Shown: positions 10,230 to 42,554 of the stretch, piece by piece
How positions within the stretch are numbered: position 1 is the first letter of the stretch
How the letters are laid out: each line of letters opens with the position of its first letter
The notes under the pieces: generated by a model
What the model was told of the DNA's origin: nothing
Seen by the model: only the letters and a program-made list of their open reading frames with translations
Databases searched by the model: none
From: a virus
Taxonomy: Duplodnaviria; Caudoviricetes
Length of the DNA: 64,000 bases
IMG/VR virus record: IMGVR_UViG_3300031775_000001
Coordinates: 1-64,000 of that record
Direction: 5' to 3' (one strand)
Program-made: the position numbers and the translations under genes

Positions 10230-10412
10230 ATGAATAAAGAAAGAATTATAGATTATTTGACAATACAGATAATGAAAGATAAAAATTTCACAGGGAATCA
10301 TCATTGCCGAGTAAGAGTTGCATGGATACTAGCTAAGAAGCAATATGAATTAATGTCTCTACAAGAAAAAGAAAACCTACTTAGAAAAATTGGTACGGAA
10401 GGTGAGACTTGA
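10230..10412 (+). CDS. hypothetical protein (60 aa), rare plus-strand gene
   Basis: Fills an otherwise empty gap, has protein-like sequence and is preceded by the GTGTA motif. Confidence 0.5.
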   Translation: MNKERIIDYLTIQIMKDKNFTGNHHCRVRVAWILAKKQYELMSLQEKENLLRKIGTEGET

Positions 10413-10467
10413 ACTCACGACCCTCTGCTTAGAAGGCAGATGCTCTATCCGACTGAGCTACTTCCGC
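10391..10467 (-). tRNA. tRNA-Arg (anticodon TCT) with encoded CCA
   Basis: GCGGAAG TA GCTC..GAGC A TCTGC CTTCTAA GCAGA GGGTC GTGAG TTCAAGT CTCAC CTTCCGT ACCA gives a canonical cloverleaf. Confidence 0.97.
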
Positions 10468-39953: not shown

Positions 39954-40400
39954 TTTATTTCTTTTTCTTCAATTTCTCTTCTATAACTTCTATTAACTTT
40001 TCCATCTTCTTTTTAGGCAATCTTTTATACCCTAATAGGAAGTCAATTATTTTATCTACAGATTTTTCTCCAAAAACCAACTCATCATTAAACGCTTTTC
40101 CTTTTGACAATACCTCCCAGCAGTATCTAATCCTATCCCTCCAAGATAAAGGTCGATTAGAAAGCCCGGAACTCCAGTAGGAAAAATAATACAGGCGATC
40201 TTCTACATCATAATCAATGCCCATCCCTTCTCCTTGGCATTCGCATTTAATAAATATTGACCTGTCTTTATTTTCATTCATTATTTTTGCCTCCCATAAC
40301 TGTTCTTAGTACATTCATTATAAATAAATAAAAAACAAAGTCAAGATTAATCGACAAGGGTTGTCTCGTTATCCTCTATATTTTGGAAATTGATCAAGTA

Positions 40401-40569
40401 GTTTCGTTCTCCCTCCTTATTTGAAGGAGTGGAAACCCATTACTGGCAATGGATTGCCTCTCAATTAGTTTCGCTCCCCTTCGTATTTGAAGGAGTGGAA
40501 ACCAGAGGAGTACTGCATCAGCATTTCCTATGCGTTTCGCTCCCCTTCGTATTTGAAGGAGTGGAAACC
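40401..40569 (-). CRISPR. CRISPR mini-array: 3 repeats (36 nt; distal one degenerate, 37 nt) and 2 spacers of 30 nt
   Basis: Repeats at 40534-40569 and 40468-40503 are identical (minus: GGTTTCCACTCCTTCAAATACGAAGGGGAGCGAAAC); 40401-40437 is degenerate. The repeat is palindromic and ends in GAAAC. Confidence 0.9.
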
Positions 40570-40675
40570 CGAAGCTCCTAACCCCTTAATATGAAAGGAG
40601 ATGCCCCTCGATAAAATCTAAGGGCTTTTAGTTCCCCACCGAACATGGAAGAACATCAAACTGTAAAAGAACAAA
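40570..40675 (-). ncRNA. structured leader / tracr- or omegaRNA-like scaffold
   Basis: boxA-like start, two to three hairpins, and an anti-repeat-like AAGGGGT-TA-GGAG joined to repeat 1 by a cUUCGg loop. Confidence 0.65.
40658..40673 (-). promoter_or_regulatory. boxA-like antitermination element upstream of the array
   Basis: TGTTCTTTTACAGTTT begins 2-3 nt after the tnpB stop. Confidence 0.55.
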
Positions 40676-41887
40676 TTAGCCAAATGCCCTCTGGCGTACA
40701 ACCTCGGCGGCATTAGGGTCTCGAAAAAGATGAGTGCCACATTCCGGGCAATCCCATTCCCTTTCGTCTAGAGTGAGGTTTCTATTAATGAAACCACAAC
40801 AAGAACAAGTCATAGAGGTATATTTAGGATCAACCATCTTACAGGTTTTTCCCTCAAGCTCTGATTTATATTGAATTTGTGAAATAATTTCTGCCAGCCC
40901 ACCGCCGACAAGTTTTTTGTTTGTGGCTTTCTTCACTCGCCTTAATGTTTTCTTATCTTCCTCTGTCTTTTCTACTATTTTCTTAACTTCAAAATCTTCA
41001 ACGGCGATGCCATCATTTTCGGAAACTATCTGACGGCTAATGGCATGTCTTGCATGTTTTTTCTTATTTGCTTCATAATGTTTTAGCCTTGCAATCTTAG
41101 ACTTTATTTTTCTAAAATTCTTTGACCCCTTTTTGCAAAGAGCCAATTTCTGATTAAGTCTAGCCTGACGAGCTTCAACATCTTTATAGGTCGGAATATG
41201 GAACGTATTGCCCTTATTGTCCGTAACATGATCCTTAATTCCAAAATCTAAACCGATTGTTTTTTTAATTTTAACCTTCTTCTGTATGGTTTGGGATTCT
41301 CCAACTATACATACATACCATTTTCCGGCTTGATGTTTAATAGTTGCGATTTTGGGCTTTCTTCCATCAAGAGAACGATGCATAATAAGTTTGACCTTAT
41401 GAGGCTTCACTCTGTTTGCAGGGTTAGATAAGAAAATATGGCTTTTCTTCAACTTGTCTTCATTTATTTCTAATTTATATGAATCAGTTTGAAAACTATT
41501 TGCCAACCTCAAAGGTTTAGGTTTCAGTCGAGAACCACCACCCTTGGTAAAGAAATTACCTCTGAGTTGATTAGCAATATGATTTAGATCTCTTGAGGGG
41601 CATTTTCTTAAAAGCTCAATACCCCAATTGTTTCCTTCTTCATCCAAATACCTATCCTCAAATCCTTCACCATAAGTTCTCCATCTCGTTATATTCCTAT
41701 TATAAGCAGTAAAATTAGGCTTTTTTTCTTCCTCATTGTCCGCTTCAGCCAGAAAGATATACTCATTCTTAACTAATTGAGAAGCTCTGCAACAATCATA
41801 TAGATATTCTTCCTGCTCCTTGTTTGGCTTAATTGCGAACTTGAAGGTTTTCAAATTCTTATTGTTTTTCTCTTTGGATTTCATCAA
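40676..41887 (-). CDS. tnpB: TnpB/Cas12f-like RNA-guided RuvC nuclease (403 aa), CRISPR-associated
   Basis: N-terminal TFKFAIKPNKEQ (OrfB HTH), RuvC-I IGLDFG, RuvC-II IAVEDF, Zn finger TSMTCSCCG...WDCPECG, RuvC-III RDPNAA. Confidence 0.93.
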   Translation of the reverse strand: MMKSKEKNNKNLKTFKFAIKPNKEQEEYLYDCCRASQLVKNEYIFLAEADNEEEKKPNFTAYNRNITRWRTYGEGFEDRYLDEEGNNWGIELLRKCPSRDLNHIANQLRGNFFTKGGGSRLKPKPLRLANSFQTDSYKLEINEDKLKKSHIFLSNPANRVKPHKVKLIMHRSLDGRKPKIATIKHQAGKWYVCIVGESQTIQKKVKIKKTIGLDFGIKDHVTDNKGNTFHIPTYKDVEARQARLNQKLALCKKGSKNFRKIKSKIARLKHYEANKKKHARHAISRQIVSENDGIAVEDFEVKKIVEKTEEDKKTLRRVKKATNKKLVGGGLAEIISQIQYKSELEGKTCKMVDPKYTSMTCSCCGFINRNLTLDEREWDCPECGTHLFRDPNAAEVVRQRAFG

Positions 41888-41894
41888 AGAACTC

Positions 41895-41992
41895 TAGTTT
41901 CGTTCTTAAGACCACATGTCGTTGTTTCGTTCATTTGGTATAGATGCCTATTTGAATTAAGCTTTGACTTCCCCTCCGAACAAGGAAGAAGC
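41895..41992 (-). repeat. second copy of the CRISPR leader scaffold upstream of tnpB
   Basis: 41961-41990 vs 40624-40653 is 26/30 identical; shared GGCATCT; two GAACGAAAC repeat-end motifs at 41897-41905 and 41924-41932. Confidence 0.7.
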
Positions 41993-42554
41993 AAGGGTAA
42001 ACCTTGATTTTGAAAAAAAATCATTCTTGAGGACTCCAATAAATCCCCTTAAATAAAACCAATTTAACATTGTCGCCATCGTCCACATCAATCCCTATAA
42101 GCTCACCCTCTGGAACGACAGATTTTGTGCTTTCATAAAAGAACTCCTTGGATTCAGAAGCATAGACTACTTGATCTGAGTGATATGGTAGCTTATCGAA
42201 GAAATCCGGATTATCCTTTTCCCATTTCTTAAAGTTTTCATATTGACTCGCTTTAGAAGGAAAATAACTACCGGACTCTAATTTGCCCACAGTCTTTTTT
42301 TGTTGTTTGCTCATTTTATTTAAAAATCTATGGATTCGGAAAAAGAAGTTCTAATGTCATTCACTAATTGAGACCGAGAATCACCCAAGGAACATTCGTC
42401 CCCTTCAATATAAAAAGAACTACATATATCGCTTATAGGGTCACCCCTAGATTCCCACCAATCCGGATTTTCTTCCATTGTTGAGAGCAAGACTTCTTCT
42501 ATAAAACTTGATATTTCTTCTATCCTGCTAAAATTGATTTCTTTATTTGTATCA

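Follow-up and report, generated by a model that had tools for sequence, protein, structure and literature searches.

A predicted TnpB-family nuclease of a T4-like marine phage is followed by a guide-RNA scaffold that probably forms a natural single guide with the first CRISPR repeat

On the minus strand of a T4-like phage genome, about 105 nt separate the open reading frame of a TnpB-family nuclease from a three-repeat CRISPR array. Judged by its conservation among relatives, this leader is the predicted structured guide-RNA scaffold of the phage's own nuclease. We consider it probable that the segment next to the array is the 3' part of that scaffold, that its anti-repeat and repeat 1 together constitute a natural single guide, and that the same anti-repeat is used in trans by the later repeats. 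Since the last 32 bases of the scaffold mirror the repeat, the RNA bearing the first guide is probably produced as a single, already folded molecule. What the analysis shows is the sequence itself, a scaffold that is conserved and covaries, an anti-repeat that varies together with the repeat, and the TnpB fold of the modelled protein. The window, meaning the whole stretch of DNA analysed, comprises 64,000 nt (IMG/VR record IMGVR_UViG_3300031775_000001); loci of nuclease relatives are designated by L numbers (L001, L198, L203 etc.).

Results

The nuclease gene and its phage context

The window belongs to a T4-like phage and encodes rIIA, rIIB, a DNA polymerase and a clamp loader, along with the nuclease.

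40676 to 41887, minus strand: TnpB-family RNA-guided nuclease gene, 403 aa, ending in TAA (NCBIfam, Pfam, RuvC residues, AF2 model)

The true start of the 403-aa reading frame is probably the ATG at 41884. The protein scored 182.6 bits against the NCBIfam model guided_TnpB (NF040570; cut-off 100) and passed the cut-offs of PF01385 and PF07282, its Pfam domains being OrfB_IS605 and Cas12f1-like_TNB. The RuvC triad (D214, E297, D390) and the four cysteines of a CxxC..CxxC zinc-finger motif are invariant in 11 relatives. Its AlphaFold (AF2) model has a pLDDT of 81 and lies closest to the TnpB structures of ISFba1 and ISDra2, with Cas12f next and LaTranC and Cas12p further off; the top structural matches are 8iaz and 8h1j, at TM-scores of 0.65-0.73 (normalised to target length), and type V effector structures rank below TnpB. 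We therefore assign the protein, as a prediction, to the TnpB family, with an apparently intact RuvC site.

Scores against the curated Cas12f2 and C2c8 models (52.5 and 66.8 bits) fell far under the respective cut-offs of 450 and 350. Cas12p matched with an E value of 2e-4 and the Cas12n match was confined to RuvC, and for the named type V effectors (Cas12f, C2c8, Cas12n, Cas12p and Cas-lambda) the nuclease gave neither a subtype-model match nor a close structural one. LaTranC matched over the RuvC part only (38 bits; TM 0.53-0.62), and because of this limitation we place the nuclease outside the LaTranC clade.

No transposase was encoded by any of the 10 neighbouring reading frames in the window or among the called genes around the relatives, and cas genes, cas1 and cas2 included, were likewise absent from these 10 frames and from the surroundings of the relatives, a statement that concerns the locus only. 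Close relatives of the nuclease were found exclusively on marine metagenome and viral contigs. Among 185,579 prokaryote species, represented by one genome each, the best match was a 36%-identical TnpB of a Lachnospiraceae species, and no host was found. A first single-protein search of viral contigs gave zero matches, and loci collected by a loose DNA pattern search were rejected, being mostly chance hits.

A short and apparently live array

The array follows the leader on the same strand:

40534 to 40569, minus strand: repeat 1, 36 nt (sequence)
40504 to 40533, minus strand: spacer 1, 30 nt (sequence)
40468 to 40503, minus strand: repeat 2, 36 nt, identical to repeat 1 (sequence)
40438 to 40467, minus strand: spacer 2, 30 nt (sequence)
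40401 to 40437, minus strand: repeat 3, 37 nt, degenerate and distal (sequence)
40361 to 40400, minus strand: a stretch of about 26 nt, then one more decayed repeat end, in common with L198 (by eye)

With three repeats, two 30-nt spacers, a period of 66 nt and turnover of its spacers, it has the properties by which CRISPR arrays are recognised. The window and L198 have the scaffold and both flanks in common and zero spacers. The loci L008 (5066-5200) and L009 (4998-5000) encode an identical protein and have their distal spacers in common, while L008 holds two additional repeat-spacer units at the scaffold-proximal end. Because the spacers of the window and L198 differ, and because L008 gained two proximal spacers relative to L009, the arrays of this clade are to all appearances live. 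The polarised gain in L008 is the pattern that Cas1-Cas2 uptake produces; the locus itself contains no adaptation genes.

Searches with the spacers of the window and of its relatives yielded no protospacer: exact 20-mers of both window spacers had no match in viral contigs, BLAST with the window, L198 and L008 arrays as queries returned nothing credible from 50,697 phage records, and 228 guides of the clade compared with all relatives' loci and the window gave repeat artefacts only. Directly past the array, at 40317-40344 on the minus strand, lies a near-consensus sigma-70-type promoter (TTGACT, 16 nt, TATAAT; 11 of 12 positions matching) that reads into the next small gene, and similar promoters follow the arrays of relatives.

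The leader is a conserved, structured scaffold

The leader divides into the following parts, a second scaffold copy lying on the other side of the gene:

40655 to 40675, minus strand: conserved 5' motif with GTTCTTT, directly past the stop codon (kept in relatives about 35% identical in protein)
40631 to 40654, minus strand: hairpin 1, 9 bp with one bulged U and a GUUCG loop (covariation)
40603 to 40625, minus strand: hairpin 2, its base conserved and its length varying among relatives (covariation)
40570 to 40602, minus strand: anti-repeat, about 32 nt (folds, duplex matrix, covariation)
41939 to 42013, minus strand: a further, shorter copy of the scaffold, within the 5' untranslated region of the nuclease gene (44.6 bits with covariance model R1, E 1e-6)
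41897 to 41932, minus strand: two 9-nt repeat ends (GAACGAAAC) flanking an 18-nt guide-like stretch (sequence)

The two hairpins that the initial annotation had placed upstream of the anti-repeat are thus present. In every relative whose 3' flank is readable there, the same order recurs: the GTTCTTT motif, hairpin 1, a TAAAAGC-like linker, hairpin 2 and a CAUCUCCUU-like element. The covariance model R1, built on 16 copies of this scaffold, found 60 copies (40 of them distinct). Every one lies on the gene strand at a locus of a relative of the protein, and more distant TnpB loci yielded zero copies. The scaffold stands 3' of the nuclease gene in all relatives and often 5' of it too. The window holds two R1 copies, the one in the leader (40596-40673) scoring 80.8 bits. 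In the 5' untranslated region, the 18-mer between the two repeat ends is kept in L003, L198 and L001; the second repeat end abuts the start codon, so that the 'guide' behind it is made up of the gene's own first bases.

In the alignment of the 40 distinct copies, pairing holds in 99.1% of cells and compensatory changes occur in 10 of the 16 pairs; none of 500 shuffles performed as well, and slid structures paired in 41-57% of cells. These figures lean towards the model because the alignment was fitted to R1, the margin still being large. Hairpin 1 pairs in 99.7% of cells, with compensatory changes in 5 of 9 pairs, and hairpin 2 has them in 4 of 4 basal pairs. No Rfam family matches the scaffold, and the whole 147-nt stretch folds with a z-score of -2.2. 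The copy number and strong covariation bear out the earlier proposal of an omegaRNA-like scaffold contiguous with repeat 1, and the predicted RNA has the layout of an omegaRNA, namely a structured RNA from the 3' end of the gene with a guide at its own 3' end, which in the window follows repeat 1. A long-range helix of 7-9 bp between the scaffold 5' motif and the repeat end, seen in the best fold of the window, was rejected as unsupported, since a 13 x 13 duplex matrix showed no preference for partners of the same lineage.

It could be argued that the leader is an ordinary CRISPR leader, providing promoter and integration signals for an array taken over from a host CRISPR system, or that it serves the nuclease mRNA as a terminator or other 3' untranslated element, in either case outside any guide RNA. 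The new spacers of L008 do adjoin the scaffold; the array, with its 36-nt repeat, 30-nt spacers and GTTTC...GAAAC ends, resembles what we take to be class 1 repeats; and a weak terminator-like hairpin overlaps the nuclease stop codon. We nevertheless judge this reading very unlikely. The base-pair covariation denotes selection on RNA structure, in some relatives a guide follows immediately on this scaffold, and no sigma-70-like promoter was found on the minus strand between gene and array (40570-40700). A part in spacer uptake would, moreover, be compatible with the leader being a guide-RNA scaffold.

The anti-repeat and its pairing with repeat 1

The initial annotation had read the 3' part of the leader as an anti-repeat fused to repeat 1 through a cUUCGg tetraloop, and the minus strand from 40534 to 40675 reads exactly as it stated, every cited base being present. 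The hairpin motif that leader and repeats have in common, CTCCTT-N6-8-AAGGGG, occurs three times in 64 kb, in two repeats and in the leader, where 0.02 occurrences are expected. In our folds the two elements are joined by three helices. P1 pairs 40595-40602 (the AUCUCCUU element) with the guide-proximal 3' arm of the repeat (40540-40547); P2, which measures 7 + 4 bp in the window as compared with 8 bp in L203 and 12 in L204, pairs 40581-40591 with the 5' half of the repeat (40550-40562); and P3 pairs 40573-40578 with the first bases of the repeat, the UUCG region forming the cap. The junction with UUCG spans 40570-40581, its loop T40573-G40570 being closed by C40574 and G40569.

As to the exact base pairs originally put forward, the 7-bp pairing of 40582-40588 with 40558-40564 is possible and is kept in the ViennaRNA best fold. 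The pairing of GGAG with UUCC is possible as well, but the best fold lies one register off (GGAGCU with GGUUUC, leaving a 3-nt loop). Neither this register nor the cUUCGg tetraloop is conserved: the G:C pair of the stem occurs in the window only, and the apical loop is UUCA in L003, the nearest sequenced relative, AAG in L203 and AUCA in L204. The cUUCGg cap is thus, by comparison of these loci, apparently the window lineage's version of a variable apical loop.

The 72-nt element at 40534-40605 folds at -24.0 kcal/mol, compared with -15.5 +/- 2.8 for shuffles (z = -3.1), and, counted from GGCAT through repeat 1, the frame is 72 nt long in the window, L008, L203 and L204 alike. The long nested hairpin is the best fold in the window, L003, L008, L203 and L204, with z-scores of -3.1 to -5.1. 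Folding both halves jointly gains 4.7 kcal/mol over separate halves in the window and 4.7 to 7.6 kcal/mol across the window, L008b, L203, L204 and L207 (about 7.5 in the last three); the gain is small in L003 (1.5), L198 (0.0) and L206 (0.2 kcal/mol).

These last figures bear on a different reading, in which leader and repeats fold separately. A local proto-hairpin at 40582-40600 would then be the guide-adjacent stem of a scaffold lacking a guide, each repeat would form its own hairpin, the nested hairpin would be a by-product of palindromes, and scaffold and crRNAs would meet on the protein only, or through a guide-proximal helix of 7-8 bp. The almost absent gain in L206 suits this arrangement, as does L198, for which it is the best fold. 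In the window the alternative of two local hairpins is merely 4.7 kcal/mol worse, a result of the strongly palindromic nature of the repeat itself. Under an ungapped alignment, moreover, the local hairpins pair in 77% of cells, with 3 of 500 shuffles as good, and the scaffolds of L201, L132 and L013 have the short hairpin only, their full repeats having no long scaffold partner. Against separate folding stand the middle helices of 8 bp in L203 and 12 bp in L204, and L207, whose local hairpins come to merely about 4 bp where the joint fold offers three shorter stacked helices.

The comparison of lineages also argues for joint folding. An anti-repeat binds the repeats of its own lineage best in 4 of 5 lineage groups with different repeats: duplexes within a lineage reach -22 to -29 kcal/mol for the window type, -31.1 for L203 and -23.3 for L204, those with other lineages' repeats -5 to -25 kcal/mol. 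The exceptions are the L203 anti-repeat, which pairs with the L198 repeat at -24.8 kcal/mol, and that of L207, which reaches -16.9 with its own repeat and -19.8 kcal/mol with the related L206 repeat. In its left half, the segment also resembles the inverted rather than the direct repeat, by 14 vs 5 in L203, 13 vs 5 in L204, 11 vs 6 in L207 and 7 vs 4 in L206, the match to the inverted copy being clear in L203, L204 and L207. In the window lineage the two are equally similar (9 vs 9), which leaves room for separate folding there; the repeat is so strongly palindromic that its direct and inverted forms are indistinguishable.

Covariation points the same way. A second covariance model, of the nested structure on a structure-guided alignment, pairs 80.4% of cells vs 73.6% in shuffles (none of 500 as good) and 47-60% when slid, with compensatory changes in 12 of 26 pairs; such an alignment leans towards the model, and few independent lineages stand behind the figures. 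P1 keeps a fixed register relative to scaffold and guide, shows double changes from C:G to A:U and from U.G to A:U in L206/L207, and pairs better within than between lineages (6.18 vs 5.36; 10 of 20,000 permutations as good). When the exact pairs originally claimed were scored on an ungapped alignment of seven homologous 72-nt elements, 69% of cells paired vs 66% in controls, 58 of 500 shuffles did as well, and a +1 slide reached 68%. We regard this null result as an artefact because the middle helix shifts by 1-2 nt between lineages, a shift that per-sequence folding and structure-guided alignment correct. With binding kept within lineages in 4 of 5 groups, inverted likeness in four lineages and compensatory changes in the nested stem, the proposal of an anti-repeat fused to repeat 1 holds up, and we consider separate folding unlikely.

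The alternative raised at the outset, that the segment is nothing more than a fourth repeat, in decay at the array's leader end and without a role of its own, fares worse still, and we give it scarcely any credence. It is true that 40582-40600 resembles the repeat core, as had been noticed (about 15 of 20 positions, by eye), and that the L203 junction looks like a repeat end. The usual place of a decayed repeat, however, is the distal end of an array, where repeat 3 is found here; this segment sits beside the scaffold, with its position and length unchanged, among lineages that have about 35% protein identity. It is as an inverted copy that the segment co-varies with the repeat, and the conserved AUCUCCUU-type element that precedes it pairs with the repeat arm in one register. 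In sum, an anti-repeat that co-varies with a CRISPR repeat, a trait of tracrRNAs, is present here in contiguity with repeat 1.

Pairing with later repeats and signs of transcription

The anti-repeat forms predicted duplexes of -25.4 kcal/mol with repeat 2 and -26.9 kcal/mol with repeat 3. All three repeats of the window and five of the six in L198 fall between -23 and -29 kcal/mol, the degenerate distal repeat of L198 at -17.6. Shuffled repeats reach -13 +/- 3.4 kcal/mol and the repeats' own hairpins -3.5 to -19, the duplexes being about twice as stable as most of these hairpins. Since duplexes with the later repeats are this stable, a second scaffold molecule could serve them in trans, much like the split guide of TranC.

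Contigs from three RNA libraries cover 40551-40794, and one of them spans the gene's 3' end, the leader and repeat 1 and reaches into a spacer of an L198-type array. Such contigs record presence only, and the uncovered stretches 40200-40520 and 40968-42100 are uninformative. They give a weak hint of co-transcription of gene end, leader and repeat 1, as strand and ends are absent from the data and DNA carry-over may explain them. TnpB is reported to cut its own mRNA and thereby to yield its omegaRNA (PMC10278001).

Layouts among relatives

The scaffolds of L201, L132 and L013 terminate in P1 alone, as a short hairpin, with a repeat end and a guide behind it; this is the layout of an omegaRNA, and full repeats come only afterwards. 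This arrangement fits the birth of an array from the 3' end of an omegaRNA, as has been proposed (PMC10691335). The terminal hairpin of the scaffold may be ancestral to the repeat, as the initial annotation suggested; alternatively, a host array may have been captured and the scaffold then adapted to it.

L001 and L002, two loci assembled independently, match the window in their upstream genes and, at 97% identity, in the nuclease, and part from it exactly at the end of the GTTCTTT motif, at 40666; from position 2100 they are devoid of scaffold and array, and the DNA found instead is absent from the window. The scaffold-array unit therefore behaves as a separable cassette. In L008 (4409-5330 and 2219-2720), a 468-aa gene of a sister clade sits amid four scaffolds, not all of one type, and two kinds of repeat, and one of these scaffolds, with its array, is almost identical to that of the window and has no cognate nuclease gene beside it. 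Two or three complete scaffolds stand in tandem per array region in L132 (3865-4700), L004 (2033-2950) and L006 (2749-3610), each followed by short units of its own.

Many guides of 15-20 nt in relatives resemble fragments of tRNA genes (T arm, D arm, anticodon arm or 3' end), in sense or antisense orientation. They occur in L004 (2797-2950), L006 (3290-3600), L007 (1738-1756), L132 (2200-2250 and 4560-4620) and L214 (1040-1120). The guide GTTGACTCTTAATCAA is identical to the anticodon arm of tRNA-Lys(CTT), and 57 of its 84 exact matches, in 80 loci, lie inside tRNA-Lys genes called by ARAGORN, all in the same sense. Rfam gave no partial tRNA matches in the relatives' arrays, and the only tRNA that ARAGORN called in the window is a tRNA-Arg(TCT) at 10391-10467 on the minus strand. 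Such guides may be directed against tRNA genes of hosts or rival phages, or they may be relics of former flanks.

Discussion

From these features we infer a course of transcription, processing, protein binding, trans use and targeting. Gene, scaffold and array would be read in one direction on the minus strand. From the stop codon onwards, the RNA would present the 5' motif, the two hairpins and the 32-nt anti-repeat that mirrors the 36-nt repeat behind it, and anti-repeat and repeat 1 would fold into a long irregular hairpin of three stacked helices and about 26 bp, leaving CGAAAC and spacer 1 as a single-stranded 3' guide. The product would be a natural single-guide RNA, equivalent to an omegaRNA with a lengthened guide-adjacent stem. 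Repeats 2 and 3 would pair with the anti-repeat of another scaffold molecule in the manner of a tracrRNA, and one scaffold would serve the array both in cis and in trans. The RuvC-intact nuclease would then cut DNA that matches the 30-nt spacers, its targets most likely being rival phages or other mobile DNA.

A bolder conjecture, which we hold to be doubtful as a whole, is that a single phage RNA element acts as cis scaffold for spacer 1, as trans tracrRNA for the later repeats and as the leader at which new spacers are inserted, by the adaptation machinery of the host or another route; that the clade retains the omegaRNA, 9-nt-end and full-repeat stages; and that some of the 15-20-nt guides aim at tRNA genes of hosts or rival phages. 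If this were true, the clade would document, in living stages, how a CRISPR array is born, and its phages would possess a weapon aimed at conserved tRNA genes.

The nearest described counterpart is TranC (Jin et al., Cell 2025, doi 10.1016/j.cell.2025.09.004), in which the right-end RNA has reportedly been functionally split into tracrRNA and crRNA (as cited in PMC13565253 and 10.64898/2026.03.27.714800). As in those accounts, a TnpB-sized and TnpB-folded nuclease adjoins a short CRISPR array in a locus that contains no adaptation genes, and the guide RNA would correspond to transposon right-end RNA, a scaffold part of it pairing with the repeats. The window thus unites the features that mark TranC: a TnpB-like nuclease, an adjacent CRISPR array and a scaffold RNA able to pair with its repeat. 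Unlike in TranC as described there, the scaffold has no separate tracrRNA gene and is joined to repeat 1 by a loop of 3-4 nt, scaffold copies lie on both sides of the gene, and single arrays of relatives combine full 36-nt repeats with omegaRNA-like units, which have 9-nt ends and guides of 15-20 nt; for TranC clades other than LaTranC, the comparison goes by their published descriptions. CauTranC9 is a CRISPR-associated nuclease of about 414 aa borne by Caudoviricetes phages (bioRxiv 10.64898/2026.03.27.714800). It is similar in being phage-borne, in having no enlarged REC or WED domains and in its short array (10.64898/2026.03.27.714800), which has five repeats of 38 bp compared with 36 here, again by description only.

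The omegaRNA or reRNA of TnpB from ISDra2 and ISFba1 (PMC8612924, PMC10097598) is likewise a structured scaffold from the 3' end of the gene, on the same strand and with a 3' guide; the protein folds of these two are the closest, and the scaffold of relatives ends directly in a guide. The phage locus differs from them in that no TnpA was found among the neighbouring genes and no recognisable transposon ends were noticed, in that several guides are arranged as a repeat-spacer array, and in that the guide-adjacent stem is a full anti-repeat:repeat duplex. With Cas12f (type V-F) the locus has in common a small RuvC nuclease and an anti-repeat encoded between gene and array. In engineered sgRNAs of Cas12f, a small loop joins anti-repeat and repeat, a geometry that appears to be natural here; the phage nuclease, however, fails the Cas12f2 and C2c8 models and is without enlarged REC and WED domains. 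A natural RNA in which an anti-repeat and a repeat-like part fold together and present a guide is also known for Cas9: Workman and colleagues (Cell, 2021) reportedly recognised tracr-L of S. pyogenes as a 'natural single-guide RNA', whose guide is said to repress the cas operon. Unlike the RNA of the window, tracr-L is of type II and is not joined to the array.

Forty TnpB branches with a downstream CRISPR array and no other cas genes have been listed as type V-U* (PMC10691335), and such arrays were proposed there to have arisen by serial duplication of omegaRNA segments. The phage clade, as a TnpB lineage with a downstream array, is similar to these branches, with which it was compared by description only.

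The window locus is probably a natural case of the half-way stage from transposon guide RNA to CRISPR that has been described for TranC and type V-U. Its particular features are the covalent join of scaffold and repeat 1 through a 3-4-nt loop, the scaffold copies flanking the gene, the presence of omegaRNA-like and CRISPR-like units in one clade, and its setting in a T4-like marine phage.

The origin of CRISPR arrays and tracrRNAs from a transposon single guide has been addressed only recently, through TranC and functional RNA splitting. In the phage clade, the unsplit and the split state would be found in one locus, where the scaffold is joined to the first repeat and yet fits all of them. 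Since relatives carry shorter and longer versions of the stem, the order of events should be testable from natural sequences. In practical terms, a nuclease of 403 aa may offer a ready-made natural single-guide design. The locus further strengthens the case that large marine phages encode RNA-guided nucleases of their own.
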